Shown here piece after piece: positions 3,094 through 61,058 of a stretch of DNA of 64,000 bases. The stretch spans positions 93,780 through 157,779 of the forward strand of contig CAWDIM010000005.1 of the NCBI GenBank assembly GCA_963802295.1, in the 5' to 3' direction. Numbering within the stretch: the first letter of the stretch is position 1; the number at the start of each line of letters is the position of its first letter. A model generated the notes under the pieces. The model had not been told where the DNA came from. It made no database searches and saw nothing but the letters and a program-made list of their open reading frames with translations. The position numbers and the translations under genes are program-made. Origin of the DNA: an uncultured Planctomycetota bacterium (GTDB lineage Bacteria; Planctomycetota; Planctomycetia; Pirellulales; Pirellulaceae).

Positions 3094-3338
3094 CAGGAAA
3101 TCCGAAATTCGAAATTCGAAAACCTAAACAAATTCGAAATTCAAAAACTAGAAATCCAAAACCTCCACCGCCGGCAAAACGGCTATCATGGCCCGCAGCC
3201 AGATTCTCACCACGGGAGCATGCCACCGCGTCCTCCATCTTCCCTTTCTCCCTTTCTCCCTTTCTCCCTTTCTCCGTTATTCCCTTTCTCCCATTTTTCC
3301 GTCATTCGAATTTGTTTCGGATTTCGTGTATTTTCCTG
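3094..3338. repeat. MITE-like composite intergenic repeat, copy A (arm + core + (CCCTTTCT)n + inverted arm)
   Basis: It contains the arm ggaaatccgaaattcgaaattcgaaaacctaaacaaattcgaaat, the core ccgccggcaaaacggctatcatggcccgcagccagattctcaccacgggagcatgcc, a pyrimidine microsatellite, and the inverted arm cattcgaatttgtttcggatttcg. It is homologous to copies B-F. Confidence 0.8.
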
Positions 3339-3356
3339 CGTTCGCCGTGCGCCATG

Positions 3357-3785
3357 TCATGGACTAACGCTCTGCTTCCGCCGGTTCTTTTTCGGGGGCG
3401 GTTTGATCAGCCAGCCGAAGAACTGCAGAATGGCCAGGAGCAACAGGATGGGCCCCAGGACGACGATAGTGCGCGGGCGCACGACGACCACGGCGGCGAT
3501 TGTACCGACGACCGCCAGGACCGCCGGGGAGACATGTTCGGTGAGTCGCATCAGTTGCGGAAAGGCCAACCAGACGGCTCCCAGCACCAACCCGATTCGC
3601 CAGCATGAGCTCCAGAAGAACCCCGAATCATCGGCGTTCAGTCCGTATCGCGCGAACCCGTAACCGGCGGTTGCCAATAAGAGGAAGGCGAGAATGCCGG
3701 CCGCGTGTCGACGCATGAAATCACTCACATCGTTGAAGCAGTATCTCGCACGGTCGCTCAGATCCGGTCCAGCGTATCGATCCAA
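3357..3785 (-). CDS. Small integral membrane protein (last gene of the protease operon)
   Basis: The 142-aa ORF has 3-4 hydrophobic helices (GILAFLLLATAGYGF, IGLVLGAVWLAF, AVLAVVGTIAAVVVV, VVLGPILLLLAILQFFGWL). An alternative start (MRRHAAG) at 3716 would remove the 28-nt overlap with the upstream gene. Confidence 0.55.
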   Translation of the reverse strand: MDRYAGPDLSDRARYCFNDVSDFMRRHAAGILAFLLLATAGYGFARYGLNADDSGFFWSSCWRIGLVLGAVWLAFPQLMRLTEHVSPAVLAVVGTIAAVVVVRPRTIVVLGPILLLLAILQFFGWLIKPPPKKNRRKQSVSP

Positions 3786-5815
3786 CGTACCAGCCTGGTC
3801 AGTTCTTCGGCATTCATATAGCGTTCAGGACCTGGGACGGTGACGACAATGATCGGGAAGGCCTGCTTTTGCAGTCGCTCTTCCCCGGCCTTGATCGGCT
3901 GGGCGATTTGCGACCCTTCGGAGGCAAAGCTATACACCGCCAGCGGCTGAACGGGGTCCGTGGTGGGCGATCCAACTCGTGTCGGCAGCGGAGCTCCGAC
4001 GACGGCCACCGCGCGGCAGAGTTCGCGATTTCCCAACGCCACATGGTAAGCCATCGCGCCGCCCGCCAGATAGCCGTGCACGACAACTCGCGCCGGATCG
4101 ACGGCATAGCGGCTGATAACATCGTCCATGGTCTTGCGGACAAATTCGATTTCGGTGGCGGTCCATCGTTTGACGTCAGCCGATTGCGGAGCCAATAGGA
4201 TCAAATCGTGCTGATCACAGAACGGTTTCCAGAGTTTGACGAGTTCATCCTTGTCGAAGCTGCCGGGCGCGTGCAACCAGACGAGCAGGCCATAGCGTGC
4301 GGCGGGGTGGTAGTTATCCGGGACATAGGCCATGCACTTATTGGCGGCTTCGGGGATCTGTATGTCGATCGTGCCCACGGGGGGCAATGGCCCCTGCCCT
4401 GCTGCCAGCGGCTCATGTGCTGGCGGCAGCTCGTCGGGGATCGCTGTGCCGGCGGGAGCCAGTTTCAGGGTGAGGGCGGCGGTTTGTCCGCCGCGAGAGT
4501 ATTTGACGGTCACCTGGGTGCCAGGATCGAAGGCGATGATCGCATCGCGCAACGAACTGGAATCAGCCACGGCGGCATCATTGATGCCGGTGATGCGGTC
4601 CCCTGCCTGCAGGCCGGCAGTGGCGGCGGCGCTGCCAGGCCAGACGTACCGGACGATGACACCGGCCTGATCCGGTGCCGCCGGATCTGCGCTGGCCGCA
4701 CCTCGGGCGGGGAGAATTCCCAGCTCGGGCCGCACATATGGTTCCAGTTCGGCAACCAGCTGTACCGCGGCTACGATCCGCTCTTTGCTCTCCCCGCGCT
4801 CGGCGACGATCTGTATTGTGTCCCCGGCGACGTGCGGCCCCAGTGCGTGTCGCAGCTGTGCCTGCCGTTGGATCTTCACGCCATCCACTTCCACAATCGT
4901 ATCGCCCACCTGCAGTCCCGCCTGACGAGCTGGCGACTTGGCGCCGCAGACGGCGATGGTGGCCGGCAGGCCATACATGTCGTTTCCTTTGAGCGAGACG
5001 CCCAGGATGCCGGGCAGCAGGTCCTGGCCAGCCTTCATGGTTTCCAGTTGTGGCATCACGTCGGCCAGCGGAACGGCAAAGCCGATGCCCGAGTCATACC
5101 ATTCGGCGCCGGCCATCTCACCTTCCTGCTGCGGCGAAAGGGGGACCAGAATCCCAATCACGCGGCCGCGAATATCGATCAACGGGCCTCCGTAGTTGCT
5201 CGGCGACACCTTGGCATCCGTCTGCACCGCTTTTCCCCAGATGCGGTTCACGGCACTGAGGATGCCGACCGAAATATTGGGTAGCGAGCCGGGGTAGGTG
5301 CGCCCGATGGCCAGCGTCCATTGTCCCACTGCCAGTTGCTGTCGGGGGACGATCTCGGGAACGGTCAGCTGCTCGTCCGTGCCGGCCTTGAGCAACACGA
5401 GCATGCGGTTGTTGTCGCGCGCCACGATGGTGGCGGATGTGCGTTTGCCGGAAGGGAGCGTGACCAGAATCGACGATGGCTTGCCGGCAAAACCGAAGGC
5501 ACTCGACAGAATATAGCCATCTTCCGAAATGACCACGCCGCTCGTGGCGCCGGTCGAGAGAAGTTGGCCTTCAACTTGCTCCACGCCTCCCACATTTTCG
5601 ATCCGCACAACACTTCCCGCCACGCGTTGCATGGCGGCCTGCATCGCCTGTTCTTCCAGGGCGGCGAGATCGTCTTGCTGCGCCAGGGCAGAGCATTTCA
5701 CGGTCGCGAAAGTATCCGCCGACCAACCGGGTTGCGACGGCACAAGATACTCGGCAGCCGACGGATGGACGTTGCTGCCCTCGTGCCCCGCCACCGTGAC
5801 GGGAGCGACGAGCAC
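3758..5815 (-). CDS. S1C(HtrA)-like protease paralog with two PDZ domains fused to a C-terminal esterase-like alpha/beta-hydrolase domain; catalytic residues appear substituted
   Basis: 685-aa ORF with TSGVVISEDGYILSS, VQTDAKVSPSNYGGPLIDIRGRVIGI, the PDZ-like segments GLQVGDTIVEVDG and GLQAGDRITGIND, and the esterase-like YGLLVWLHAPG...VVVHGYLAGGAMAYHVAL. A signal-peptide-like ORF (MIGPSRRLSLHWLLTTATMAGTLS, ATG at 5888) lies just upstream in another frame, so the true start may be 5888 with a frame break near 5815. Confidence 0.8.
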   Translation of the reverse strand: MLVAPVTVAGHEGSNVHPSAAEYLVPSQPGWSADTFATVKCSALAQQDDLAALEEQAMQAAMQRVAGSVVRIENVGGVEQVEGQLLSTGATSGVVISEDGYILSSAFGFAGKPSSILVTLPSGKRTSATIVARDNNRMLVLLKAGTDEQLTVPEIVPRQQLAVGQWTLAIGRTYPGSLPNISVGILSAVNRIWGKAVQTDAKVSPSNYGGPLIDIRGRVIGILVPLSPQQEGEMAGAEWYDSGIGFAVPLADVMPQLETMKAGQDLLPGILGVSLKGNDMYGLPATIAVCGAKSPARQAGLQVGDTIVEVDGVKIQRQAQLRHALGPHVAGDTIQIVAERGESKERIVAAVQLVAELEPYVRPELGILPARGAASADPAAPDQAGVIVRYVWPGSAAATAGLQAGDRITGINDAAVADSSSLRDAIIAFDPGTQVTVKYSRGGQTAALTLKLAPAGTAIPDELPPAHEPLAAGQGPLPPVGTIDIQIPEAANKCMAYVPDNYHPAARYGLLVWLHAPGSFDKDELVKLWKPFCDQHDLILLAPQSADVKRWTATEIEFVRKTMDDVISRYAVDPARVVVHGYLAGGAMAYHVALGNRELCRAVAVVGAPLPTRVGSPTTDPVQPLAVYSFASEGSQIAQPIKAGEERLQKQAFPIIVVTVPGPERYMNAEELTRLVRWIDTLDRI

Positions 5816-5925
5816 GGCTCAGCGTGCCGGCCATGGTCGCCGTGGTCAGCAGCCAGTGGAGTGAAAGACGACGCGACGGGCCAATCATTATGAGTTCTTT
5901 CAGTAGGTTCAGTTCGCGAGGCAGA

Positions 5926-6990
5926 TTACTGGGGTTGCAGTTCAACATCAACGAGTTCCTGGCCGCGCTGGACCGTCAGCCGCACCGGGTCAATGTGGTC
6001 GACGAAAGACAGCTCTTCCGCGAGTTCCCGGCAGGACGAGACCATGCGATCGTTCACAAACAGGATCAGATCATCGGGACGCAATCCGGCCTTGGCGGCC
6101 ACGGAGTCGACCAGGAGGCGATCCACGAACGGCGGGGTCTTGGCCAGAATGTCGGGGACCAACACGATTCCCAGAGCTGGCAAAGTATGCGGGTTGGGCG
6201 GTCGTTTGGCATTCTCATCAACGCGACGCGGCGGACTACGTCCGGCCATCATGTCGTGGATCGAAGTCCTCAATTCGGAGATCGGAATGGCATAGTTGAG
6301 CCACGTGTTGTCCAAGGCATTGCGCAATTCCTTTCCCAACACCCCTGCCAATTGCCCCTGGCGGTCGGTCAAAGCGCCCCCGCGGCACCGGGATTATTGG
6401 CCATGGCATCGACAACGTAGACCGGGCCACGGTAAATCGTCTGGAACGCCCCGCGGCGCACCGCCAGTTGACTGATGGCCGCCACCGTGCCGTGCAGCAC
6501 ACTGGTTGGTTCCGCCCCGACGGCGATGCCGAACAAGTTGCTGAAGGCCAGTACGCGAGCACCCGGCTGTAACTCGACCACTTCGTCCAGATTGAAATAG
6601 GGAAGTCCTTTGGCTTCGATCTTCAGTATGGCGATTTCCAGCCGGGGATCATGACCGACCAGCGTGGCGCCATAACGGGTACCATCGTCCAGCACCACAT
6701 TGATGAACTCTTCGGCATCCAGCACATAGCTCCACGCCGTCAGGACGTGCCCTTCGGCCGAGATCAACATCCCGCTCTGATAAGCTTCCAGCCCTTGCAG
6801 GCCTCCCGAGCCGTAGATTTTCACGATACGCGGCTGCACAGCGGCAATGACGTCGGCAAACGACCCGCTGTCGGCGCGGACCGGCAGGGCGATCGCGTAG
6901 CAGGAACAGCAGTGCAGCTGCAGCAGACCGTCGGTGGTAACGCGGTGAATGGCGGAACACGGCGAATGTTATCCTCACAGGCTCAGTCAT
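5926..6990 (-). pseudogene. S1C-like pseudoprotease with C-terminal PDZ domain, split by frame breaks (ORFs 6369..6839 and 5926..6372)
   Basis: ORF 6369..6839 ends ...DAMANNPGAAGAL*. ORF 5926..6372 continues TDRQGQLAGVLGKE. One extra C in the C5 run 6377-6381 would give NPGAAGGALTDRQGQLAGVLG, which fits NPGNSGGPLxDxxGxLxGI. An ATG at 6990 overlaps the upstream stop (ATGA) but lies in a third frame, which implies a second break near 6880-6950. Confidence 0.7.
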
Positions 6991-8779
6991 TTCAGTTCGT
7001 AACTCTCGATCTGCAGTTCCGCGAAAACAGTGTCTCCGTGCCGCACGATCACGCGGTGCGGCAGCAGGTAGTCACCTGCCTGGCGATAGTCTTTGAAATA
7101 GACCTCGCAGGGATCAACATTCATGGCGGGGAACATTTCCAGGGCGACCAGTAGGCCACTGTCGGGCTCAAACGCGTAGCGAACTTCGACGACGTTGTGC
7201 GTGCCGACCAGCACGTCGAACAGGCCATCGCGATCGATCAACGGAACGGTGCCGAGGTAATAGATTTCGCCGAACTGCTGCGGGCCCTCCCGCAACAGAC
7301 GCTGCCACAGGGAGAGCGTGGGCAACAGTCCGCCGCTGCCGGCGGGGAGCAGCTGCTGGTCGTAGTCGACTCGCAAATCCACTTTGTCCCGGCTGGCGGG
7401 GAACTGGCCGGACGCCTCACCAGGCCCGAGTTCAATTTGGAAAGGTCCGCCACCGGTCACCTTGCCCGCCAGGATCCAAGTGGGTGGCGAGGAGGTGAAA
7501 TCGGAGTTTCCGATGAACTGGGACCACACTCGCTGCTGGTTTGCTTCGTTGAAGAAAAAGTTCGCGTAGCCGGGCTTCTCCTTGATCAGCTGCGCCACCT
7601 GCTCAGGGGGCGGCTGAGGCTGGCCGGGATGGCCGGGTGGCATGGGGAGTCGGGGCCGCGGTTGGGGCGAGTCGCCATCCTCTTTCTTGGGCGGTTCATC
7701 ACCGGGCCGCTTCTCCGGTGCGGGGGGCTGTCCCGGCGGTGTCAGCGGTGCCTGCTGGACCTTGGCGAGCAGTTCTTCGCGCGAATGCACGCCTGACAGC
7801 CGGACGAACACATCACGCCGCTCGTCTTCATGCCGATACGTCATCGGTACTCGCCAATCGCGGGGGAAGATCCCGAGCACATTCTTGAAACCGTTGACGC
7901 TGGTAATCTCGCGGCCGCCAAACGACAGCAATTGGTCGCCGTACCGCAAGCCGCGACGGTACGCGTCCGAGGACTCCAGGATGTTGGCCACGACCACGCG
8001 TCCCTGTTCGTCGCTCGTCACCGTTGCGCCCAACGTGGCGTGATCGACAATCCGGCCACTGTGCAGGTAGCCGAGGAATTTCTTGATCTGGTTGATCGAA
8101 ATGGCGTAGCCGACGCCGACATTCACTCGCCCACGCTTTTCGAACGAACCGCGGCCATTGATGCCGACCAACTGGCCTTGAGCATTGAAGAGCGGTCCCC
8201 CGGAATTGCCCGGATTGATGGCCGCATCGGTTTGGATGCAGTCGGTGTATTCCAGCAGGGTCCCGGCCGGCGGTTGGTATCGATGCACTCCCGACACGAT
8301 TCCGTACGAAATCGTCGGCTGGAAATCGGTCGCCAACAGGAATGGATTCCCCACCGCGAAACACCAGTCACCCGTGCGCAGCTGATCGCTGTCGCCCAGT
8401 TCGGCGGTCGGGAAATCGTCCCGGCCCAGCAACTTGATCAGCGACACGTCGCCGGTCGGATCGAGGCCGACGAGTACGGCGTCGTACAGTTGGCCGTCGG
8501 CCATGCCGCACTGCATGTAGCTGCCCGTCGGTCTCACAACATGGAAATTCGATAAGGCAAAGCCGTCGGGACTGATCACCACCCCCGAACCTCCGCCGCC
8601 CCCCCCGGCGCAAACACCGCCACCGCCGATTGCATGGCGCGGGCCATCGCCGCCATCCGCTGCTGCTCGGCCTGCAACACCGGGGCGGGCGGTTCTTGCG
8701 CGACGAGCGGCAGTGCCGGGATGGCCAACAGCAGCACCGAGACACGGATCATCCAGTTGTGCCGTGAGCAAATGGTCAT
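6987..8779 (-). CDS. Trypsin-like S1C serine protease with PDZ domain (triad intact); signal peptide displaced by a homopolymer frame break
   Basis: The motifs GSGVVISPDGFALSNFHVV, DPTGDVSLIKL and IQTDAAINPGNSGGPLFNAQGQLVGING are present. The listed ORF is 6987..8795. ORF 8576..8779 (MTICSRHNWMIRVSVLLLAIPALPLVAQ...) starts with an ATG that overlaps the upstream stop (ATGA). It would join the protease frame if the C8 run 8599-8606 were C9. Confidence 0.85.
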
Positions 8780-9981
8780 TTGATGATCCTTGCATTGCAG
8801 AGGTTCAGATGGTCGGCCACGTCCAGCGTCTCACCAAAGTCGACCAGGATCCTGAGTCGCCGCACGCCCTCGATATTCAAGTCCAAGGGAAAGGGAGGAT
8901 CTGTTCCGGCAATGCTCCGGCGAAACAACTCGCGGTCGTCCCCGAATATCACCAGGACCAGATTCCCGCGTCCCTGCAGTCGGCTGTCGATGCCAACCAC
9001 GGCGGTGAGCGTGCGAAATGGTTCGGCCAGTCGATAGACCAGCTCGCTGCGACTGTGGATCGCCAACCCGCGGTCGTACTGCTGTATTTCGCTCCCAGCC
9101 GCCAACCATAACCCGCTTCCCTCGAAACCGTTGTCGCGGCGCGGGGCATTGAGCTGCATCATCCGTTTGGGCGATACGAGCGAGGCGATATAGGGAGTGC
9201 ATTGCGTCAGATCGAATGGCAAATCACTCAGATACACTACATTGCCGGCCGAGAAATCGAGCCGTCTGAGAGCAGCCCAGGGGACCGCGCATTGCGCCCC
9301 TCCCACGGTGACCAGCCGGAGATGCCCCTCCTGCCACTCGATCGACTTGACTCGCCAAGCCGTGCCATTCGCCTCTTGCACCGTACACACCGCCGGCGGC
9401 AGTTCACGGACCACACCCTGGTGGTAAATGATCCCCTCGAGTTTCGTCCGTTTCACGGGGATCTGCTGATCGTCATATTCGAAATCGACCACATCCGCCG
9501 TCACGTCCTGAAAGACCCCGGTAAGTTGATCGAGCGACGTGCGGCTGCGACGCAGCACGAGCACATCTCCCGTCCCTTTGCCGGCTAACATCTCCTGCCA
9601 TTGAGCATCCAAACCTTCGGAAGGAGGCTGGAACCGTACGGATCGTACGTTCCTCGTCTCGATCGTTACACTGCGATCCGTCCACTGAATCTCCGCTGTC
9701 CGATTCTTCACAAGGTACTCGGTCGCGAGAATCCGAGAGCCGTCAATCAGGTCGATCCACACTTTTGGTGCCGTCGCCACCGTCGACTCTTCGCCATGCT
9801 GCATCACCACAGTCAATAAGTCGCGCATGTCATACGATTGCTGCTTGCCGTCCACCTCGATCGCAATGTGCCGGCTATCCAGTTCCACCAGCGCACCCGT
9901 TTGTTTCGAGCCGCTCAAGGGCTCGACGGCAACGTCTAAAGCCATCGGCGTGTGAAGAAGCACTAAAGCCACGATGTACAT
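8776..9981 (-). CDS. Secreted/anchored protein with C-terminal NPCBM/NEW2-like carbohydrate-binding module
   Basis: 401-aa ORF with a hydrophobic N-terminus. The C-terminal GLAIHSRSELVYRLAEPFRTLTAVVGIDSRLQGRGNLVLVIFGDD...LDVADHLNLCNARII fits the NPCBM pattern (GL..H..SeivY.L...f..F.a.vGvD...V.F.V..D...DhadWadA). Confidence 0.75.
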   Translation of the reverse strand: MYIVALVLLHTPMALDVAVEPLSGSKQTGALVELDSRHIAIEVDGKQQSYDMRDLLTVVMQHGEESTVATAPKVWIDLIDGSRILATEYLVKNRTAEIQWTDRSVTIETRNVRSVRFQPPSEGLDAQWQEMLAGKGTGDVLVLRRSRTSLDQLTGVFQDVTADVVDFEYDDQQIPVKRTKLEGIIYHQGVVRELPPAVCTVQEANGTAWRVKSIEWQEGHLRLVTVGGAQCAVPWAALRRLDFSAGNVVYLSDLPFDLTQCTPYIASLVSPKRMMQLNAPRRDNGFEGSGLWLAAGSEIQQYDRGLAIHSRSELVYRLAEPFRTLTAVVGIDSRLQGRGNLVLVIFGDDRELFRRSIAGTDPPFPLDLNIEGVRRLRILVDFGETLDVADHLNLCNARIIK

Positions 9982-10010
9982 GAGTGTTCCAACCCTCCGT
10001 CACTGCCTAA

Positions 10011-10404
10011 TCATAATCTTAATCTTATTCTTACTCTTACTCCGACCGCGGCCGCTGGCCACAATCAATCAGGAAATCCGAAATCCGAATATCGAAATCC
10101 TAAACAAATCCAAAATTCAAAATCCAAAATTCATAAACCGAAACTCCAACTCCAATACTCCAAAACCGCAAAACACCTCCGCTGGCGGCAGAACCACAGT
10201 CACGGACCGCAAGCAGCTTCTCATCACGGGGCATGCTACCGGATGTGCCGTTCGCCGTTCCTCCCGTTTCTGTCATTAGTATTTCTGTCATTCGAATTTG
10301 TTTAGGATTTCGATATTCGGATTTCGAATTTCCGGCCTGGTTGCGGCCGGGGGGCGCGGTCGGAGTAAGAGTACGAGTAAGAGTAAGAGTACGAGTACGA
10401 GTAA
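10011..10404. mobile_element. MITE-like composite repeat, copy B (most complete: about 110-bp imperfect terminal inverted repeats around the core)
   Basis: The left end is (CTTACT)n-ccgaccgcggccgc-...caggaaatccgaaatccgaatatcgaaatcctaaacaaat. The right end is its reverse complement: atttgtttaggatttcgatattcggatttcgaatttcc...gcggccgg..gcgcggtcgg-(AGTAAG)n. The core ccgctggcggcagaacc...cagcttctcatcacggggcatgctaccgg lies between them. Confidence 0.65.
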
Positions 10405-10418
10405 AACTGTATAAATGG

Positions 10419-16013: not shown

Positions 16014-16026
16014 GGTGATTTACTGC

Positions 16027-16300
16027 TAACTCTTACTCTTACTCTTACTCTTACTCGTACTCGTTACTCTTGACGCGGCCTGCGGCCGCCACCAAACAAA
16101 AAATCCGAAATCCCAATATCGAAATCCTAAACAAATCCAAAATACAAAACCCAAAAACCCGAAACCCGAAAAACCCTCTGCCGCTGGCAAAACTGCGTTC
16201 ATGATCCGCCCACAGCTTCCCACCACGCAGCCTGCTAGTCGATGTCCCCTTCCTCCCTTCCTCCCTTCCTCCCTTCCTCCGTTTCTCCGTTTCTCCGCTT
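16027..16300. repeat. MITE-like composite repeat, copy C ((ACTCTT)n + GC palindrome + arm + core + (CCTTCCTC)n)
   Basis: It reads ctcttactcttactcttactc...gacgcggcctgcggccgcc...aaaatccgaaatcccaatatcgaaatcctaaacaaatccaaaat...ccgctggcaaaac...cagcttcccaccacgcagcctgct...ccttcctcccttcctcccttcctcccttcctcc. It abuts the stop of the gene ending at 16303. Confidence 0.8.
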
Positions 16301-16302
16301 CG

Positions 16303-23659: not shown

Positions 23660-23751
23660 GCAAGGTTCCTCGTGGTGATCGGGGCGGATGTTATGTGCTT
23701 TGTACTAGCGTGTTCGTCGGTAACCTGCGCGCACGGTGCACGCATGCTTGG

Positions 23752-23990
23752 GAAAAAAATCCGAAATTCGAAGCACGAAATGCCAAAAATCCCACACAAA
23801 TTCTCATGACGGAAAAAGGGGAGAACGGGAATAAGGGAGCAAGGGAAAACGGAGGACGCGGTAGCATGCTCCCGTGGTGAGAATCTGCTTGCGGATCATG
23901 ATAGTCGTTCTGCCGGCAGCGGAAGTTTCTGTGCTTGAGTTTTGGATTTCGAATTCGTCTAGGTCTTCGATCTTGCGATTTCGGAGTTCC
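23752..23990. repeat. MITE-like composite repeat, copy D (reverse orientation)
   Basis: It contains the arm aaaatccgaaattcgaagcacgaaatgcc, a purine tract aaaggggagaacgggaataagggagcaagggaaaacggagg, the reverse core gcatgctcccgtggtgagaatctgcttgcggatcatgatagtcgttctgccggcagcggaag, and the arm ttggatttcgaattcgtctaggtcttcgatcttgcgatttcgg. Confidence 0.8.
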
Positions 23991-24506
23991 TCTTAGGTTG
24001 GGGATCGCTGGGATCTCAGCGGGGGGGCCGCACTGGCTTGGCCGCTGAGTTCTTTCTCTCTACGGTAATCAAAGATAGGTTTGCCGATGGACATTCGCTC
24101 CGTTTTCACCGGGACTTCGTTCTCCGCCGATTTGCTTCGATCGCCTGGTCGCCCCAAGGAACGCTTCCATCAGCATGTCCGACAGCCCGATTGTCGGGTC
24201 GTCTGGTTCCGGTTGCCCTCCTCATGGCGAGGTTTGAGCCCCACAATATCAACTAGTTACGGTTGTGCCGGCACACGACAAATGGCTGCATCCACCTGTC
24301 AGTGGGGAGTTGATCTTGAGGGTTCTACCAGACGACCGGCTGGGTGGTCCACTGAACCTGCTCAGTACTCCGGTGACCGATTCGTACGCCATACTGGCGG
24401 CGCGTCAAATAGTGCAGGGAATTGTATCACGCTGTCACGATTGGACGACCTGCGGCAGCGGATGGCAGGTCTCGAGCCGTCCGACTTGGCGTCCGCCTCC
24501 GATCCG

Positions 24507-30083: not shown

Positions 30084-30092
30084 TATTGAACC

Positions 30093-41641: not shown

Positions 41642-41954
41642 CTCTCTCCTGCCTGTGCACTGTATTGGGACGGAAATAGACCGATCCAGTCTCGCAAAAG
41701 TGGTTTCATAGGACAACACGCCGCGACACATTTTCGACATGAGCAGCCAACTGCCGGCGAGGTGGAATCCGGTCGAGCCTGCCCGCTCCCAAGACTACCA
41801 AGTCTTGCCGCAGTGTCATCTCCCACTCTCCCGTGCCTTCACACTCGTGCATCTCTCGGGGGGTGATGATTGCTTTCGGTATTGGGCGGGGCGCATGATG
41901 GTGGTCGGCTAGGTTGGTGTGACGCGGTGCGGTCCACTAGCTGAGAGGTGAGCC

Positions 41955-43070: not shown

Positions 43071-43351
43071 CCAACCAATACAATGACACCAAGAGCCACT
43101 CATTGCGGGTGGCCATTTTTGTTGGCGGACCGCATAGCTTCGCGGGCTAACACGGTGCGACTCCAGGTTGTCAAAGATCGAATCACGTTGCGCCAGTTGG
43201 CTCGATCTGTTCGGAGGCGGTACACTAACGGTATCGGGACGGCTGACCGGGTTGCAAACCGACGGCCAAGCGGTCCCTGGCGCGAATGCTGCGTCTCGCC
43301 TTTTCGCATCGTCGCGCTGGGGATCGGCCCGACCTACGAAAAGGCGAAATC

Positions 43352-43930: not shown

Positions 43931-44264
43931 CCGCGGGGTATCTCAGGGGTATGTTTCGGGGTAGTTTTGCAGTTTTCTTGGATTCTCGTTTGACCCCGTA
44001 ATTTCCCGAGTGCTTTCCACTTCTCAGGGGTATCGTTGCGCGGAAGATACCCCGATTCCCGGTTTGGTTGCGGCGTGTTTCGCAACCAACACCGGAGATC
44101 GAATCATGGCAAAGCACAAGTTGACGCGCGAGACGAGGAGCGGGCCTATGCCGATCTGGCACGGGCGGCCCGGCGACTGAGGGCGGTCCAGGCCACGGCG
44201 ACCAAGCGGCCGGCCAAGAAACCCAAGACCTCCAAGCGGCCGGCAAGCCGGAAGGGGGTGGCCG

Positions 44265-44531
44265 ATGGCGTCTAGCACCCCCACGACATCGCCCCAGGAC
44301 TTGCCCACGGCCGATGGCATCCAGGCTGAGCTGTTGACCTGCAAGGAAGCTGCCCAGTTGGCCGGAGTTGGCGAAAGAACCTGGTGGTCTTGGACCCGAA
44401 GCGGACTTGCCCCAAAGCCTATTTTCATTGGGCACGGCACGCGGCCAGCCTGCAGATACAGGCGGTCGGAAATCATGTCTTGGATTCAAGACGGTTGCCC
44501 CAGAGTAGACAAGGGGGACAACCAGCGATGA
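44265..44531 (+). CDS. AlpA/excisionase-family HTH DNA-binding protein
   Basis: 88-aa ORF. LLTCKEAAQLAGVGERTWWSWTRSGLAPKPIFIG...RYRRSEIMSWIQDG fits the excisionase/HTH_17 pattern. Its stop overlaps the next start (ATGA at 44528). Confidence 0.7.
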   Translation: MASSTPTTSPQDLPTADGIQAELLTCKEAAQLAGVGERTWWSWTRSGLAPKPIFIGHGTRPACRYRRSEIMSWIQDGCPRVDKGDNQR

Positions 44532-47338: not shown

Positions 47339-47947
47339 CAGCGGTCGAACTGCTGGCGGAATGCCAAGCCCGACAAATCGACCTGCTGGCCCACGGAGGG
47401 CAGTTGGACATCGACGCCCCGGCCGGTGCCCTGACGCCTGACCTATTGGACCGGCTGAAGGCCCACAAAGCCGACCTGCTGGCGATCCTGCGGGGCGATG
47501 CCGAGGCTCTGCAAGCCCAGCATGAAGCCGCAGCCGAGCGCGACGCGATAGTGTGGTGCGAGAGCGGGCCGGCGCACGAAGTGGATGCCGCGCTGTGGGC
47601 GGCGATTGACGGTTTCGGGGGGGCTCGAGCCGGTGGAGGTGGACGCCCACGGCGGCGCGGGGCAGGATCTGGCAGCGGCTGCAGCCCCACGCCCCCGGTC
47701 TGCGGTTCCCGTTGCGGTCGAGTGGCCCGGAGAGGCTGCGGACTTCTGCCTGTTGCTGACGGCCGATGACCTGCCCGAGGTGCCATTCCGGTTGAATGCT
47801 TGGACGGAGGTATGCGACGCGGCCAAGATGCTGCGGTGGCTGCAAGCGGACATCCGGCGCGGCCCCAGCGGACCACGGGCGTTCTACGCTGCCCTGCAAG
47901 CTGACCTACTGGCCCTGCAGCGGTTCGCCCTGCAGGTCCACGACTGA
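47335..47947 (+). pseudogene. Hypothetical island protein with TubC-N-like N-terminal docking motif, frame break in a G7 run
   Basis: The N-terminus is MTAVELLAECQARQIDLLAHGGQLDIDAPAGALTPDLLDRLKAHKADLLAIL. After ...AAIDGFGG the sensible continuation (LEPVEVDAHGGAGQDL...LQADIRRGPSGPRAFY) lies in ORF 47585..47947. The G7 run is at 47617-47623. The start is ATGA-coupled to the upstream stop. Confidence 0.55.
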
Positions 47948-48018
47948 GACAACTTTCGCCCACGGCAGCGGCCGGATGCTGCGGGCGGTTTACTTCCTTC
48001 CGGCCGATAGGTGATGAA

Positions 48019-48409
48019 ATGAACAAGACCAACACGCCGATTTTCGATGCGGTTTTATCGCATCTACGGGCGACGGGCGAACTGCCGAACTTTGGCGGCC
48101 CGGTTGAAGCACGGCTTAGCCTGATGCTGCATTCCGGCGGCGGGGTCGCGAGCCCGGACGTTTTCGAGCTGTCTTGGGCGAATGAATCGCTGTCGATTAT
48201 CGGCATCGACCCGGCGATTGCTGACGTCTTGGCGCGTACAGACCACGCCGGAAGACGCGCCCCAGGTGGAAGAAACCATCTACCAAGAAGGTGCGGTGGT
48301 CGAGTTTCTGCTGCTGCTGACGGCACACTGGCACGCAGAATCGACGCAGACGGGGCAACGCGACCACAACGTATCGAACTCCGGCCCGGTGCGTCAGAAC
48401 GCATCCTAG
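48019..48409 (+). pseudogene. Hypothetical island gene, probably frame-broken
   Basis: ORF 48019.. reads plausibly to ...IADVLARTDH. ORF 48182..48409 gives the plausible tail PEDAPQVEETIYQEGAVVEFLLLLTAHWHAE.... No family was recognised. Confidence 0.3.
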
Positions 48410-48557
48410 GCGATGTTCCGCGAAACAGCGGGAAAAGGCGAGAACTGGCGACGGTCCCCACGGGGAAGAATAACGAGAATAGGATGCTTGACCGCTAGCC
48501 CAGTATCCGATAGACTTACACTAGGTTAGCAGACAAGTAAAGCAATGGGGCCAGACA

Positions 48558-48783
48558 ATGGCGAGAAAACGCAGAGAACCGAAGTTGCTGAGCGATCAGT
48601 TGCGGGAGATCCTGGACAGCGGCCCGATGACTCGATACCGGCTGTCCATAAGAGGCGGGAGTAGACCAAGGGCAGCTAAGCCGGTTTGTTCTCGGCAAAG
48701 GGCAGATGACATTCAACACGCTGGATCGCATCGGGCAGGTACTCAAGTTGCGGCTGGTTGTGGAGTCGGACCGGGACGCATGA
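48558..48783 (+). pseudogene. Small HTH (XRE-like) regulator, one frame break
   Basis: MARKRREPKLLSDQLREILDSGPMTRYRLSI is followed, in another frame, by EAGVDQGQLSRFVLGKGQMTFNTLDRIGQVLKLRLVVESDRDA*. The break lies at ataagag, 48645-48655. Confidence 0.5.
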
Positions 48784-48835
48784 TTGTCAGTTGACCACGG
48801 GCGGGCAGGCCCTCGGAAGAAAGGCAGGCGAGACG

Positions 48836-50428
48836 ATGGCAACGGTTTACAAACGGCGAGAACTGCGGCCGATTCCTGACGGGGCGGAGACCATCGGCAC
48901 GTATCGCGGCAAGCCCTACGCGACCTGGACGGACGCCAAGGGCAAGGCCCAGCGGGCGCCCTGAGCGCGGACGGCAAGCATATCATCCAGTTGGCGACGT
49001 GCTACACGGCCCAGTATTTCGATGAGACCGGGAAGCGACGCAAGGCCCCCACGGGATGCCAAGACAAGGCCGAAGCTCTGCGATACGCGAACCATCTGGA
49101 AAACCAAGCCCGGAAACGGCGGACGGGCGAAATCGACGTGAAGGCCGAACGCTACGGGAAGGAAGCCCGGCGGCCCCTGTTGGAGCACGTTGCGGACTTC
49201 AAGCAGTATCTTGCGGACAAGGGCAACACCGCACAACACGTTTCCCAGACAACCCGACAGATACAGGCAATCATCGACCAGACCAACGCGGAACATGTCG
49301 CGGACTTGGACGGGGCAACAGTGATGCGGGCGATCGGCACACTGCGGGAACGCAAGGACAACCCGGCAAGTCTGCGGACCTGCAATTCCTACATGCGATC
49401 CGTCAAGACGTTTACCCGGTGGCTGCGGGTAGAGAAGCGGACTGCCGAAGATGCCTTGGCGGGGTTGTCGCAATTCAACGAAGCAACCGACCGGCGGCAT
49501 ACGCGGCGAGAACTGACGCCCGAGGAATTGACCTACCTGCTGCAGCACGTCGAAAACGCTGTCGGTGAGAACTACCGGCTATCCGGACCCGTGCGGGCTA
49601 TGGCCTATCGCGTGGCCCTCGGGACGGGATTTCGGGCTAAGGAACTTCGGTCGTTGACCCCGGCATCATTCAACCTGGACGGCGATCCGCCCACGGTGAC
49701 AGTGGCCGCGGCCTACTCGAAGCGGCGGCGGCTGGACGCGCAGCCGATCCGACCCGACTTGGCCGAGGTGTTGCGGCCCTGGCTGCCGGAGTTCCCGCGG
49801 GACGAACAAGTATTTCGGCTGCCCCACAACACGTCGAAGATGTTTCAACGCGATTTGGCAGCGGCCCGAGCGGCCTGGATCGACGAAGCAACGATCGGAC
49901 GAGGAACGCCAGCGCCGGGAGAAATCTGACTTCCTGCGTTACCGGAACGCGGCGGGTGACGTGGCGGACTTCCACTGCCAGCGGCATACCTACATTTCCG
50001 GCATCGTGGCAGGCGGGGCGAGTGTCAAGACGGCCCAAGAGCTGGCCCGGCATTCCACGCCGGTTCTAACCATCGGCCGATACTCCCACGCCCGGTTACA
50101 CGACCTGCAAGGTGCCTTGGATGCCCTGCCTGACCTGCAGCCCCAGGACCCGACGCCCCAAACGACGGCCTACGCGATGGCGACGGGGACCGACGGTGAA
50201 ACGGCCGAAGTTTCGCGGGGGCAGATGCGGGGGCAGTACGGACGCAAAACGCTGCAAGAAGTTGCGAATTGTGGCGAACGGCCCGAAGATTGCGAGGGCG
50301 ACGGCGACACGCCACAAGTCTTGTCTATGGCAAGACTTCGCGATACGTCGCGAGACACTGCGGCAGTGGTCAGGGGCGGGGTCGAACCGCCGACACTCGG
50401 ATTTTCAGTCCGATGCTCTACCAACTGA
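48836..50428 (+). pseudogene. Tyrosine recombinase/integrase of the island, two frame breaks
   Basis: The gene is read as three pieces. The first is the ATG at 48836 (MATVYKRRELRPIPDG...AQRAP). The second is ORF 48991..49929 (LATCYTAQYFDETGKRR...GTGFRAKELRSL...). The third is ORF 49961..50428 (DFHCQRHTYISGIVAGG...LTIGRYSHARL). The breaks lie at the ccc run 48959-48961 and near 49881-49895. The 3' end runs into the tRNA. Confidence 0.85.
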
Positions 50429-50435
50429 GCTACCT
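50361..50435. repeat. Right 75-bp direct repeat (attR-like) of the tRNA-Phe island
   Basis: The sequence is identical to 36552..36626. Confidence 0.9.
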
Positions 50436-50439
50436 GACC
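50367..50439 (-). tRNA. tRNA-Phe (anticodon GAA)
   Basis: The reverse complement is GGTCAGGTAGCTCAGTTGGTAGAGCATCGGACTGAAAATCCGAGTGTCGGCGGTTCGACCCCGCCCCTGACCA. The 7-bp acceptor, D, anticodon (loop CTGAAAA) and T arms (GGTTCGA) all pair. It is 73 nt long and no CCA is encoded. Confidence 0.93.
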
Positions 50440-51025
50440 TAATTCGTTCTGTGCAATGGACTTACGGAGCGGCTCTGGCTGCGGCAAGACGTCCGTTGAC
50501 AACCGTTAGGCAATGTGGCCAACGGGCTTCGAGCGTCCCGGATCTCCCGCGAAACGAGTCCCCAGCTCTCGTCGGCTCGTACTCAACCCGAGCCAGACAC
50601 CCCCTTCCCGAATTTTCCAGTCTAGCAAAAAAGCATTGGTCAGCAACCCCGCCCAGCCCGCATTGAAAAGCAAAAAAAAGGTCAGTACTGCGGCGCGATG
50701 GAGACCATCAACGATCTGCAGCAAGAGATCAGTCCAACGCTTCTGTTCCGCTCGCTCGTGCAGCGTCCGCGGACTGAGGACTGGCCAGCTGCTGCGCGTG
50801 AGACGCGACGTGTGCCCGCCGAACCCGACGTGGGGAGAATAAAACGGCGACTTGCCCAGGCCGATACGGGCTGCGAGTTGATTCGGTCGCGACGGCCCGC
50901 CGGTCTGTTGGTACACCCGAGGACGCGACCGAAGGAGATATTAACGCTCCTGGACGTTCAAGAGTTCTCGAACTGATCCATCCTCGAGTCGAGCTTCCGC
51001 AGGCCAAACGTGTTTCCCAGATCAT

Positions 51026-51471
51026 GGGAAATCGGGAAATCGGGAAATCGGAACAGGGAACGCGGAACGCGGAATGGGGAATGGTGAATGGTGAATGGGG
51101 AATGGTGAATGGGGAATGGTGAATGGTGAATGGTGAATGGTGAATGGTGAATGGTGAATGGTGAATGGTGAATGGTGAATGGGGAATGGGGAATGGGGAA
51201 TGGGGAATGGTGAATGGGGAATGGGGAATGGGGAATGGGGAATGGGGAATGGGGAATGGGGAATGGGGAATGGGAATGGGGAATGGGGAATGGGAATGGG
51301 GAATGGGAATGGGGAATGGGGAATGGGGAATGGGGAATGCGGAATGGGGAATGCGGAATGGGGAATGCGGAATGGGGAATGCGGAATGGGAATGCGGAAT
51401 GCGGAATGCGGAATGCGGAATGCGGAATGAAGGGAATGCGGAATGCGGAATGCGGAATGCGGAATGCGGAA
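51026..51471. repeat. Heptanucleotide microsatellite (about 60 units; blocks of GGGGAAT, GGTGAAT and GCGGAAT, led by three GGGAAATC units)
   Basis: The repeat is directly visible. The unit variants are arranged in blocks rather than mixed at random. Confidence 0.95.
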
Positions 51472-51591
51472 CGAGCAGGGAGGCGACGCTCAGGAGGATC
51501 GCTCGCATCTCGAGTCTTCGGCCTGGGAGAGAGAGCGGTCTGGAGGAGATTTCCTTGTCACACGCCGATTGTCAGTGACTTACTTCCTGAG

Positions 51592-51737
51592 CCGCCCCGA
51601 AGCGTCCACCTCGACTTCCGCATTCCGCATTCCGCATTCCCTATTGCGCACCTCGCACCCGCTTCCCACCCGCATCCGGACGCTTCCCCACGTCAGTACA
51701 GAGTGTTCTGGGCCATATGCGTGTCAGCCGCTACAGC
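51592..51737. repeat. About 140-bp direct repeat, copy 1 (starts with inverted CATTCCG heptamers)
   Basis: gccgccccgaagcgtccacctc...ccgcattccgcattccgcattccctattgcgcacctcgcacccgcttcccacccgcatccggacgcttccccacgtcagtacagagtg.tctgggccatatg...gccgctaca. It is near-identical to 51778..51915. Confidence 0.9.
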
Positions 51738-51777
51738 TTCCATGGTGACATTGACATCGGAAGCACGCGTGAATAAA

Positions 51778-51915
51778 CCGCCCCGAAGCGTCCACCTCAC
51801 ATTTCGCATTCCGCATTCCCTATTGCGCACCTCGCACCCGCTTCCCACCCGCATCCGGACGCTTCCCCACGTCAGTACAGAGTGCTCTGGGCCATATGAG
51901 TGCAAGCCGCTACAA
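51778..51915. repeat. About 140-bp direct repeat, copy 2, abutting the 53-bp array
   Basis: It has the same sequence as 51592..51737, apart from one fewer heptamer and a few substitutions. It runs directly into unit 1 of the 53-bp array. Confidence 0.9.
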
Positions 51916-52657
51916 GGTAGCTGGCCAGTTGTGGCCCCACCGGAATAAATCCGGTGGAAGCCTGGCAGGGTAGCTGGCCAGTTGTGGCCCCACCGGAGTA
52001 AATCCGGTGGAAGCCTGGCAGGGTAGCTGGCCAGTTGTGGCTCCACCGGAGTAAATCCGGTGGAAGCCGGGCACGGTAGCTGGCCAGTTGTGGCTCCACC
52101 GGAATAAATCCGGTGGAAGCCGGGCACGGTAGCTGGCCAGTTGTGGCTCCACCGGAGTAAATCCGGTGGAAGCCTGGCAGGGTAGCTGGCCAGTTGTGGC
52201 TCCACCGGAGTAAATCCGGTGGAAGCCTGGCAGGGTAGCTGGCCAGTTGTGGCTCCACCGGAGTAAATCCGGTGGAAGCCTGGCACGGTAGCTGGCCAGT
52301 TGTGGCTCCACCGGAGTAAATCCGGTGGAAGCCTGGCACGGTAGCTGGCCAGTTGTGGCTCCACCGGAATAAATCCGGTGGAAGCCGGGCACGGTAGCTG
52401 GCCAGTTGTGGCTCCACCGGAATAAATCCGGTGGAAGCCGGGCACGGTAGCTGGCCAGTTGTGGCTCCACCGGAATAAATCCGGTGGAAGCCTGGCAGGG
52501 TAGCTGGCCAGTTGTGGCTCCACCGGAATAAATCCGGTGGAAGCCGGGCACGGTAGCTGGCCAGTTGTGGCTCCACCGGAATAGATCCGGTGGAAGCCTG
52601 GCACGGTAGCTGACCAGTTGTGGCTCCACCGGAGTAAATCCGGTGGAAGCCGGGCAA
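51916..52657. repeat. Tandem array of 14 x 53-bp units, each with an 8-bp perfect inverted repeat (CCACCGGA-ntaaa-TCCGGTGG) and a CTGGCCAG palindrome
   Basis: The unit is ggtagctggccagttgtggc[c/t]ccaccgga[a/g]taaatccggtggaagcc[t/g]ggca[g/c]. The phase is exactly 53 bp for 14 units. Variation is confined to about 4 positions, and there are no spacers. Confidence 0.95.
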
Positions 52658-52732
52658 GGTTAATCGCGGCATGCTCTCTGATATTGAGGTGTTAGTTGAT
52701 AACACTCGCGCAGGGTGATCGCATGTTTGGAG

Positions 52733-52956
52733 AAGAATCCGAAATTCGAATCACAGAAACACCAACGACAAAGACGGGGAAGGCTGGCAGACGCGGCAGC
52801 CAGTAGCCTGCGCAGTGGTGAGAATCTGCTTGTGGCCCGTTACCCCAGTTTTGCCGGCAGCGGAGGTTTTGGATTTTGAGTTTTGGATTTCGAATTTGTT
52901 TAGGTTTTCGATATTCGGATTTCGGATTTCCTGATTGGTTGCGGCCGCAGGCCGCG
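52733..52956. repeat. MITE-like composite repeat, copy E (reverse orientation)
   Basis: It contains gaatccgaaattcgaatcac, a short purine tract, the reverse core cagtggtgagaatctgcttgtggcccgttaccccagttttgccggcagcggagg, and the arm ttggattttgagttttggatttcgaatttgtttaggttttcgatattcggatttcggatttcctgattggttgcggccgcaggccgcg. Confidence 0.8.
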
Positions 52957-53073
52957 TGAAGTAAATCCGGTGGAAGGCCGGCGAAGCAGATCGCGGCAGG
53001 CTCCCTGGCGCGATGCGATATGGCATTGCTGGCGCCTATTGCGCTGCGCAGAAGCAGCAGAGGCGTTTGCTCT

Positions 53074-59127: not shown

Positions 59128-59140
59128 TGGTTGAGGGACG

Positions 59141-60019: not shown

Positions 60020-60169
60020 TGCGTCAGCAGTGAAGTGGTCGGCACCCGGTAAGGTGGTGAAGGAGTGGTTCTGCAATACTCCCCTTCCCCGCCCCCGCCG
60101 TGCTCGCATCAACTTGGCCTTCAACAAACTAACCACCATGTAACCTCTGTTTTCGTCGAGTGGTAAAGC

Positions 60170-60832
60170 ATGTTAGTTGCCGAATTAAATGTGTTCGCGG
60201 TCCTCGGGAATCTCATGTACGTGGCACTCGGCGTGATCGCCGTGTGGGGCGCTTTTTGCGTGGTGATGGTGTGGAACCGCGTGCGTGAGAAACGTTTTCG
60301 TAACGAAGATCAACAGGCGGAGTTTCTCGAAGCGCTGGATGATCCGATCCTGCGGGGCGATTTCGAAGCGGCCGAGAACCTGCTGGCGATGGACAAACGC
60401 GCAATGTCGCAGCTGGCGCTGTTGGCCATCATGAATCGAGATATCGGCTTTGCCAAGGTGCGCCAGCTGCTGGTCGATCGCTTCCAGCGGGACGTCCTGG
60501 CCGATCTCGAATATCGGCTCAGCTGGGTCAATACGGTCATCAAGAGCGCGCCGATGATCGGGCTGCTGGGTACGGTGATGGGGATGATGGGCGCCTTCAA
60601 GACGTTGGCCAGCCAGGAGACGGTCAAACCGGCTCAGCTGGCCGGCGATATCAGCTTCGCTTTGATTACCACCGCGATCGGGCTGACCATTGCCATTCCG
60701 CTGCTGTTGGCCACCGCGAGCATCAATGTGCGGATCCGCAAAATGGAGGACCTGGTGGCGTCCGGATTGACCCGTTTCCTGGACACTTTTCGCGCTGGAA
60801 TCGATCCTTCCGAGACGTTGCGGCACAAGTAG
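60170..60832 (+). CDS. MotA/TolQ/ExbB proton-channel family protein
   Basis: 220-aa ORF. APMIGLLGTVMGMMGAFKTL...LAGDISFALITTAIGLTIAIPLLLA is the family signature. Confidence 0.9.
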   Translation: MLVAELNVFAVLGNLMYVALGVIAVWGAFCVVMVWNRVREKRFRNEDQQAEFLEALDDPILRGDFEAAENLLAMDKRAMSQLALLAIMNRDIGFAKVRQLLVDRFQRDVLADLEYRLSWVNTVIKSAPMIGLLGTVMGMMGAFKTLASQETVKPAQLAGDISFALITTAIGLTIAIPLLLATASINVRIRKMEDLVASGLTRFLDTFRAGIDPSETLRHK

Positions 60833-61058
60833 GACGGGAGGACGGAGGAAGGGAGGAAGGGAGGACGGAGGAAGGGAGGAAGGGAGGAACGGAGGAAGGG
60901 AGGAAGGGAGGAAGGGAGCATTCCGGAGCATGCGCTGTGGTGAGAAGCTGCTGGCGGCCCGTGACTGTGCTTTTGCCGGCAGCGAAGGTTTTTCTTGAGT
61001 TTTGGATTTTGAGTTTGTTTGGGATTTCGAATTTCCTGTCTGGTGGAAGCCGGCCGCG
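60833..61058. repeat. MITE-like composite repeat, copy F ((GGAAGGGA)n + reverse core + arm), between exbB and exbD
   Basis: It starts 1 nt after the exbB stop. It contains ggacgggaggacggaggaagggaggaagggagg..., the core gcatgcgctgtggtgagaagctgctggcggcccgtgactgtgcttttgccggcagcgaagg, and the arm ttgagttttggattttgagtttgtttgggatttcgaatttcc...gccggccgcg. Confidence 0.8.

Follow-up and report, generated by a model that had tools for sequence, protein, structure and literature searches.

Several kinds of short repeat have been described in bacterial genomes. The Rickettsia palindromic elements (RPE), palindromic selfish repeats of ~100-150 bp, can occupy protein genes, in frame, as well as RNA genes and leave these intact; to our knowledge they occur in a single genus only, with no coding partner known. 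The pneumococcal BOX and the bacterial interspersed mosaic elements (BIME) of enterobacteria are composed of modules, of which one is variable in number and some may be absent. Among the intervening sequences (IVS) of 23S rRNA genes, that of Coxiella is a 428-nt selfish element in helix 45 with a terminal inverted-repeat stem, an S23p open reading frame (ORF) in the loop and tandem heptamers (GACAGAT) before the ORF, the number of which varies between strains; it is excised by RNase III, its origin and the role of S23p are open, and an old proposal sees it as a mobile element with the ORF serving mobility (PMC4990558). Insertions in the rRNA genes of the candidate phyla radiation (CPR) include 23S_rRNA_IVP ORFs (PMC11270868), the PF05635 family is regarded as a homologue of Avd of diversity-generating retroelements (PMC10053308), and intergenic heptamer arrays are known from Xanthomonas, Nostoc and Beggiatoaceae, some as convergent pairs and some just upstream of start codons (PMC4692102, PMC4679880). 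Here we analyse a family of intergenic repeats, copies A to F, in a 64,000-nt stretch (the window) of contig CAWDIM010000005.1 from the metagenome-assembled genome (MAG) of an uncultured member of the Pirellulaceae. Probably these repeats are old and ORF-less and derive from a selfish, palindromic cassette of the IVS type known from 23S rRNA.

The AT-rich arms within and beyond the window

On the strand with the A-rich arm first, the repeat reads (CTTACT)n hexamers, a GC palindrome (GCGGCC-N3-GGCCGC), the A-rich arm (GGAAATCCGAAAT...CCTAAACAAAT...CAAAAC), a ~70-bp GC-rich centre, an octamer array (TCCCTTCC)n and the inverted arm. The arm pattern CGAAANCCTAAACAAATYCRAA has 22 nt with 19 fixed and 2 two-fold positions, for which we estimate ~1 chance match in 1.2e12 positions at uniform base composition. 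In the GTDB representative genomes it was found at a minimum of more than 110 loci in MAGs of ~20 phyla, the hosts being named here from the record titles. These include Pirellulales, Lacipirellulaceae, Thermoguttaceae, Planctomycetaceae, Phycisphaerae, Limisphaerales and Lentisphaeria (Planctomycetota, Verrucomicrobiota) and Omnitrophota; Saccharibacteria, WWE3, Uhr-, Roizman-, Woese- and Doudnabacteria in the CPR; WOR-3, Desulfobacterota, Dehalococcoidia, Chloroflexia, Latescibacterota, Bacteroidota, Ignavibacteriales, Nitrospirota, Aminicenantia, Sumerlaeia and Gammaproteobacteria among other bacteria; and, in the archaea, one Methanosarcinales and one Halobacteria MAG. The GC content of the hosts outside the element spans 32-71%, and that of the arms stays within 22-42%. 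A typical complete copy is a 90-180-bp imperfect palindrome with the ends 5'-AAATCC...GGATTT-3' and a short variable centre; its arms consist of degenerate heptamers (GAAATCC, TAAATCC, TAAGCAC, GAATGAC and others), and a stop-free reading frame is present in both. The literature that we searched holds no description of the arm sequence, of its spread across phyla or of the link between PF05635 cassettes and dispersed families of ORF-less hairpins, which is absence of evidence only as coverage was incomplete, and nothing specific to these repeats was found in the literature on planctomycete repeats or MITEs (miniature inverted-repeat transposable elements).

A profile built from 108 arms of other genomes, with no window arm included, matched nine arms in the window (E 3e-16 to 9e-4, Table 1) and nothing elsewhere in it, and by this measure the window arms are assigned to the cross-phylum arm family. 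The same arms flank protein genes. In three genomes found through the arms (L088, Chloroflexi; L108, Limisphaerales; L082, WOR-3), these bracket an ORF of ~120 aa, the ATG of which lies within the inner heptamers of the arm (...CAAATTCAAATGACCAAA...), and which corresponds to TIGR02436 ("four helix bundle protein") and PF05635 ("23S rRNA-intervening sequence protein"). As these cases had been found through the arms, an independent test used three PF05635 homologues picked by protein similarity and contig number only (P0256, P0275 and P0195, at loci L120, L126 and L132). Arms were present on both sides of all three genes, five of them with E 1e-9 to 9e-14 and the sixth with 3e-5, and the genes sit in tight same-strand operon spacers (hdr-like/flpD, leuA/leuC and yjgF/alanine-racemase-like). 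The arms of the window are homologous to those flanking PF05635 genes, with the profile flanking six such genes, and the WOR-3 genome has both forms, gene-bearing and hairpin-only, within 2.2 kb of each other. Two more remote PF05635 genes, one from a Nostoc plasmid and one from a plasmid of an enriched Chlorohelix culture, have inverted arrays of other short units alongside ((AATTCAAA)4/(TTTGAATT)4 and (GAAGGAT)n with its inverse), and the repeats flanking a Bernardetia PF05635 gene look direct, not inverted. The PF05635 proteins had no match in PADLOC. In the general design, then, inverted arrays of 6-8-nt units enclose a PF05635 gene in nested arrangement, and the hexamer, heptamer and octamer modules of the window fit this.

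Members of the arm family are also found inside genes. The 23S rRNA gene of a Saccharibacteria MAG (L017) holds four complete hairpins (3594-3750, 3898-4088, 4450-4606 and 6181-6364). This gene lies at 3425-6545 with a further arm just upstream, and it matched the full-length Rfam model with only 1318 bits. In a Roizmanbacteria MAG (L040, 4420-6309), an intact LepA of 629 aa contains a hairpin of ~90 nt as an in-frame insert of ~30 residues (KNQKPENRNPKQIQNTKSKNQNNFEFRASNFEFSNSE), placed in the loop just before the conserved NLIDTPGHVDF, with the reading frames of the element free of stop codons, and in L027 an arm lies in frame in a UvrD-like ORF. The centre is common to the copies within one genome and different between genomes, as seen for the window, for five Lacipirellulaceae copies and for L009, a relative of the host, which means that the elements were copied as whole units. 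No target-site duplication was evident at ~50 complete copies in other genomes, and no direct repeat flanks copies A, B or D in the window. Only three loci with the arm pattern were found in viral contigs, so phages are no obvious vehicle. A candidate composite or autonomous element (L070) was rejected, its two arms 6 kb apart being two separate copies, and hairpin stability showed no significant strand asymmetry over 30 complete copies (p = 0.29), the orientation of which is ambiguous besides.

Copies in the window and at orthologous sites

The six copies that the sequence-only reading had picked out were all recovered, with their modules legible at the places it gave (Table 1). In a scan of the window, the core motif TTCTCACCAC with up to one mismatch marks copies A-F exactly, together with two unrelated sites; a MAFFT alignment puts the six in one register of ~300 columns with the same module order and ~45 invariant columns in the centre, and self-BLAST linked every pair at 68-88% identity (E 1e-8 down to 2e-40). 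The copies as such are 68-84% alike, a level too low for a recent burst. The modular architecture claimed for the family holds in its order, but not every module is shared, as the hexamers are confined to copies B (at both ends, inverted) and C, the GC palindrome is clean in C and E only, degenerate in B and F and missing from A and D, and the octamer array, long in A, C, F and G, is degenerate in D. Copy B alone repeats the GC-rich segment and (GAGTAA)n in inverted order after the inverted arm. Its inverted repeat has 107-nt arms (10008-10114 / 10291-10397) that are 84% complementary, close to the ~110-bp imperfect terminal inverted repeats ascribed to it, and the whole unit has a predicted fold of -166 to -186 kcal/mol. 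Copies A, D and E have inverted repeats with arms of 22-25 nt (74-91% complementary) and fold less strongly; C and F have none, being cut off at the polypyrimidine end and ending in the octamer array. Copies D and E have a further ~45 bp in common beyond the short arm (23710-23776 vs 52689-52754, 79%, self-BLAST). On the gene strand, the (AGTAAG)n arrays, which are modules of the larger copied unit, stop 6 nt (C) and 26 nt (B) short of a start codon.

Table 1. Repeat copies in the window, with their modules and the matches of the arm profile
Feature	Position	Strand	Modules and remarks	Arm-profile matches
Copy A	3091..3338	+	left arm 3091-3165; centre 3166-3240; (TCCCTTTC)n 3241-3307; short right arm 3299-3338	3091-3165 (E 2e-15); 3328-3299 (E 6e-5)
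Copy B (most complete)	10008..10404	+	(CTTACT-like)n 10008-10042; GC-rich palindrome ~10043-10061; left arm 10068-10170; centre 10171-10267; right arm 10268-10337; GC-rich 10338-10362; (GAGTAA)n 10363-10404	left (E 3e-16); right (E 4e-16)
Copy C	16020..16301	+	(TTACTC)n 16020-16071; GCGGCCTGCGGCCGC 16075-16089; left arm 16100-16176; centre 16177-16246; (CCCTTCCT)n 16247-16301, ending beside stop codon of upstream VWA gene; right arm absent	left (E 7e-13)
Copy D (upstream of MoxR)	23700..23994	-	shared extension 23700-23744; right arm 23745-23812; degenerate octamers 23809-23858; centre 23859-23934; left arm 23935-23994	two arms (E 2e-4 and 9e-4)
Copy E	52689..52956	-	shared extension 52689-52732; right-arm remnant 52733-52760; centre ~52761-52864; left arm 52865-52935; GCGGCCGCAGGCCGC 52941-52955	left (E 9e-15)
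Copy F (between exbB and exbD)	60831..61058	-	(AGGAAGGG)n 60831-60918, from exbB stop codon; centre 60919-60993; left arm 60994-61035; GC-rich remnant 61040-61058	left (E 1e-4)
G (between exbD and exbD)	61640..61850	+	(GGAAGGGA)14 at 61691-61807; heptamer scraps either side	

All copies are intergenic, as the sequence-only reading had it, and lie between protein genes, an rRNA gene being absent from the window. It had also placed several of them within operons, and copy C is indeed found inside a MoxR/DUF58/BatA/VWA gene string, and F and G within exbB-exbD-exbD; B lies between two further same-strand genes. A Pfam scan of 40 ORFs, which with the MoxR operon genes make up most of the likely genes of the window, found no transposase (none had been recognised before), no RAYT (the transposase associated with repetitive extragenic palindromic, REP, sequences) and no reverse transcriptase. 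The partial copy G did not stand up as a family member. It was undetected by the arm profile, and its spacer can be aligned to those of relatives at the ends only, in an uninformative alignment; what is seen is an octamer array with arm-like scraps, and not a demonstrable copy.

The ~70-bp centre, presented earlier as the conserved heart of the repeat, turned out to be its local part, the arms being the ancient part found across phyla. The core pattern had no match in 185,579 species genomes, and in the JGI metagenomes two chance coding matches only, so that the core is private to the Pirellulaceae lineage of the window, a lineage-specific filling. A role as a small RNA, also raised earlier, gained no support: Rfam found only tRNAs in the window at the gathering threshold and no family for the centre at relaxed thresholds (the other Rfam matches at gathering and relaxed thresholds were a 23S rRNA and spurious plant miRNA-hairpin matches), and the folding energy of the centre was no better than that of shuffled sequences on either strand (z -1.7 to +1.4), with no common fold; six centre sequences are too few for a covariation test. 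A six-frame jackhmmer search found no PF05635 ORF in the window, and no PF05635 remnant was found in the centres, the latter being the weaker test as the profile included two mis-framed sequences. On the minus strand, which is the operon-sense strand, copies B (10177-10193) and C (16176-16192) have a weak terminator-like hairpin, GTTTTGCCGGCAGCGGAGG followed by a T run, a sequence that is the best-conserved part of the centre and is also found in the remaining copies. The promoter/terminator scan found no promoter-like site inside any copy, and 18 terminator-like sites vs 13.3 +/- 4.1 in shuffled sequences, which is no excess.

Comparison with relatives of the host (L001-L004, with MoxR 92-95% identical; L008, ExbD 91%; L009, 88%; and L005, GCA_041736845.1, a MAG of the same species that is 97.9% identical over 4248 bp) revealed differences at the level of both species and strain. 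L005 carries the orthologous copy D, with a 16-bp (two-unit) indel in the array and changes in the centre, and one third of all differences between the window and L005 sit in the centre and octamer array. In L001-L004, the site of copy D is filled by unrelated sequence with the landmarks of the MoxR leader kept, and that of copy C by short unrelated spacers (seen in the orthologous spacers of L001 and L003). Copy F is missing from the exbB-exbD spacer of L008, which holds (GTCATTA)7 and (GACCACT)20, and of L009, which has a plain spacer of 102 bp. In L009, two elements with the same arms and another centre lie at 8950-9147 and ~19357-19510, where the window is empty, and no arms were found in 74 kb of L001, L002, L003 and L008. 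With copies absent at orthologous sites and those of L009 at others, the family has a patchy distribution over the sister species, with no joint inheritance of its sites; the comparison of orthologous sites proposed with the sequence-only reading has here given the presence/absence differences it asked after. The arrays in the L008 spacer (9731-9982) show sister species filling one spacer with different short-unit arrays, and the same locus has paired TAGGACGGGATCCTATCCCGTCC palindromes at 7770-7840. A conserved ATCGGCAAACCTATCTTTGAT-like box is found in the MoxR leader of all relatives (24080-24100 in the window, 9660-9690 in L001, 6640-6665 in L002 and 9825-9845 in L003), on the upstream side of the variable region in which copy D sits in the window; the MoxR operon may have in it a promoter or a leader element.

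Origin of the repeats and competing explanations

In other genomes the full cassette consists of an AT-rich arm of degenerate heptamers, a gene of ~120 aa for a four-helix-bundle protein (PF05635/TIGR02436, S23p/Avd-like) and the inverted arm. According to the IVS-type reading, the gene would have been lost in the Pirellulaceae variant and the ~70-bp GC-rich filling and octamer array gained, with an outer GC palindrome and hexamer array in some copies; this variant would have been copied whole to six or more intergenic spacers, with later decay of the copies through loss of arms (C, F), shortening (A, D, E) and expansion and contraction of the arrays. Arms transcribed within operons would pair into a long AU-rich stem, which by analogy with rRNA IVSs may be a substrate of RNase III, and a cut in the stem, for example in a transcript through copy B, could uncouple the upstream and downstream cistrons. 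We infer that the elements persist because they are selfish or neutral, and not for a function in the host. The route of copying does not look like cut-and-paste transposition of the DDE type, against which the lack of target duplications and of a transposase partner argue, and the Avd-like cargo makes a route through RNA and reverse transcription, or hairpin-driven replication, worth testing.

Several points weigh against this reading. Neither the window nor the centres hold a PF05635 ORF or remnant, so that the proposed derivation would be read from arm homology alone, and a resident full-length copy is unproven in a host seen over 64 kb of its MAG, which is one of the main caveats, the MAG origin of the cross-phylum evidence and the low complexity of the arms being the others. 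The ends of the elements and the lack of target duplication were read from single copies, with no filled/empty pair of alignable flanks. Part of the arm similarity could be convergent, the arms being low-complexity heptamer arrays, but the exactness of the 22-mer and the E-values of the profile speak against convergence. The matches across phyla are all from MAGs, and some of the taxonomic labels may be binning errors, although the 23S rRNA and LepA contexts and the spread in GC content make wholesale contamination unlikely. RNase III processing of the window transcripts is argued purely by analogy. Finally, the T-rich arm is on the operon-sense strand in 4/6 copies, and with the conserved weak terminator-like hairpin in the centre this could mean some host-level function.

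This last point leads to the explanation that the arms and arrays are a platform of the host, binding a nucleoid protein or a transcriptional or translational regulator and kept for tuning the flanking genes, like the TAACTGA arrays of Beggiatoaceae. Besides the orientation of the T-rich arm and the operon-sense hairpin with its T run in B and C, it could account for the hexamer arrays that end so close to start codons in these two copies, for the different heptamer arrays of L008 in the same exbB-exbD spacer, and for the intergenic heptamer arrays, some of them inverted pairs, in Xanthomonas, Nostoc and Beggiatoaceae (PMC4692102, PMC4679880). We nevertheless think it improbable, as the orientation to the flanking genes is inconstant (4/6 vs 2/6), the neighbouring genes are functionally unrelated, close relatives do without copies at the same sites, members of the family insert in rRNA and coding sequence, and the scan found no excess of terminator-like sites and no promoter-like site in the copies. 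There is hardly any case for the narrower proposal that the core is a small-RNA gene or cis-regulatory RNA with the arms as mere vehicle: its many invariant columns in six copies are what could be expected of such an RNA, but it has no Rfam match, its folds are those of shuffled sequence on either strand with no common structure, it differs by indels from a 98%-identical strain, and, the two chance coding matches aside, its pattern is absent from the genomes and metagenomes searched.

The terminal inverted repeats, the small, non-coding and intergenic copies and the insertion polymorphism among species would all suit classical MITEs, that is, deletion derivatives of an insertion sequence with a DDE transposase, moved in trans by cut-and-paste with the transposase encoded elsewhere in a genome of which only 64 kb is visible. 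This too we consider unlikely. Target-site duplications, a feature to be looked for according to the sequence-only reading, are lacking both at the complete window copies and at the ~50 complete copies elsewhere, and no transposase is encoded by the 40 window ORFs scanned. The autonomous partner with the same ends that it had envisaged does exist, as a longer element in other genomes, but encodes the ~120-aa PF05635 protein and no recognisable transposase, and this four-helix-bundle gene is the sole coding partner found with these arms. In addition, the arms are heptamer arrays of 50-100 nt with no defined terminal binding site, and a near-identical arm sequence over ~20 phyla is atypical of the ends of insertion sequences. 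If instead the GC palindrome were the active unit of a mosaic of REP/BIME type, spread by a RAYT (a Y1 transposase) with the other modules as passengers, one could understand the mosaic make-up, the position of GCGGCC-N3-GGCCGC beside the arms of C and E, and the related palindromes that adjoin arms in another Pirellulales MAG (L028, L092, L097). The palindrome is however the least constant module (A and D lack it, and those of B and F are degenerate), no solitary palindrome is seen in the window, the window has no RAYT, and the part common to many genomes is the arms and not the palindrome, which makes such a mosaic very improbable. Of the earlier description as a MITE-like family, the dispersed, non-coding, inverted-repeat and polymorphic character remains, but the repeats have no transposase partner, no target-site duplications and no recent burst; "MITE-like" suits their behaviour, and on the best reading they are not classical MITEs of the DDE type.

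A more far-reaching reading, which we put forward only tentatively and do not expect to hold, is that heptamer-array arms and an Avd-like four-helix-bundle gene form a distinct cross-domain class of mobile element, which spreads without a recognisable transposase and spawns ORF-less hairpin families. The RNA hairpin excised by RNase III might then be copied back by a reverse transcriptase recruited by the Avd-like protein, as Avd acts in diversity-generating retroelements, or copies might arise from hairpin-driven template switching at replication forks. If this were true, the IVSs of rRNA, the in-frame hairpin inserts in proteins and the intergenic heptamer arrays would be faces of one phenomenon.

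Wider meaning and comparison with known systems

The window has other repeats and mobile DNA. Between two copies of tRNA-Phe(GAA) that share a 100% identical 75-bp direct repeat lies an integrated island of 13.8 kb (36557-50439), with lower GC at 38-42 kb and without any repeat copy, the genes of which include a weak phage-integrase ORF (48991-49929), a DUF3854 ORF of 984 aa (44384-47338) and an HSDR_N fragment (41195-41740). It is followed by 2.6 kb with no convincing gene (50450-53073) that consist nearly entirely of satellites: (GGGAAATC)3 with ~60 heptamers of the GGGAATG/GGTGAATG/GCGGAATG type (51026-51471), a duplication of ~180 bp around 51590-51900, and a 53-bp x14 satellite of 96% identity with an internal hairpin (51916-52660). 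Copy E follows these satellites, and ~50-60 bp of the satellite end recur beyond it (52633-52680 vs 52960-53007, 81%). At 1602-1964, in the spacer of two convergent genes, lies a tandem satellite of 23 bp x16 (GAGTGCCATGCCGTTGGCATGCA, 93% matches) that has a palindrome inside it.

For the window, the analysis explains a conspicuous class of spacers, at seven sites in 64 kb, and predicts long double-stranded RNA stems in MoxR-type and exbBD operons, which annotators should take for neither genes nor small RNAs. The family is here read as IVS-type palindromic selfish elements with MITE-like behaviour; the sequence-only reading is partly supported. The wider and more interesting result is the cross-domain arm family tied to PF05635 genes. 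The IVSs with their S23p ORFs are a puzzle that dates from the early 1990s, with a mechanism of spread and a function of the protein lacking. Arms of ~70 nt that are AT-rich flank both PF05635 genes and hairpin-only copies in genomes of 32-71% GC, in bacteria and archaea, are found in rRNA, in frame in protein genes and in operon spacers, and give rise to lineage-specific multi-copy families, which makes the IVS puzzle tractable by comparison and by experiment. Part of the reported excess of bacterial intergenic heptamer arrays may also be debris or modules of such cassettes.

Of the known systems, BOX and BIME resemble the window repeats in being modular, with variable copy number and missing modules, but have unrelated sequences, a narrow host range and no coding partner of the PF05635 type. 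The heptamer arrays (TAACTGA in Beggiatoaceae, Cyanobacteria and Bacteroidetes, GGGAATC/GGGGAYT in Xanthomonas and Nostoc, and the short tandemly repeated repetitive sequences, STRR, of cyanobacteria) are likewise tandem 6-8-nt units in spacers (PMC4679880, PMC4692102), often just before start or after stop codons, sometimes as convergent stem-loop pairs and of varying length in close relatives; they are however single-unit arrays with no shared unique centre, whereas those of the window are modules of a larger copied unit, and PF05635 cassettes are not connected with them in the papers that describe them (PMC4679880, PMC4692102). Bacterial MITEs (Correia, ERIC/IRU, Nezha and others) share with the window copies that they are short, non-coding and bounded by inverted repeats, dispersed in spacers including those within operons, and present or absent between relatives, but the window copies lack a target-site duplication and a DDE-transposase parent, have heptamer-array arms and are old (68-84% identity). 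The behaviour of RPEs is matched by the hairpins in LepA and 23S rRNA, a likeness that concerns behaviour; unlike RPEs, the arms described here span many phyla and have a PF05635-bearing form. With regard to the 23S rRNA IVSs that carry an S23p/IVP ORF (Leptospira, Coxiella, CPR), the window copies differ in lying outside rRNA, in the spacers of mRNAs, in having no ORF but a lineage-specific filling with hexamer and octamer arrays, and in forming a dispersed multi-copy family, and the Coxiella heptamer GACAGAT differs from those of the arm family. Shared by these IVSs and the arm family are inverted repeats at the termini, which can form a long stem by pairing, tandem heptamers by the start of the ORF with a repeat number that varies between strains, a four-helix-bundle ORF of the PF05635 family in the loop of the full-length members, and, in the Saccharibacteria MAG, a position within the 23S rRNA gene itself.

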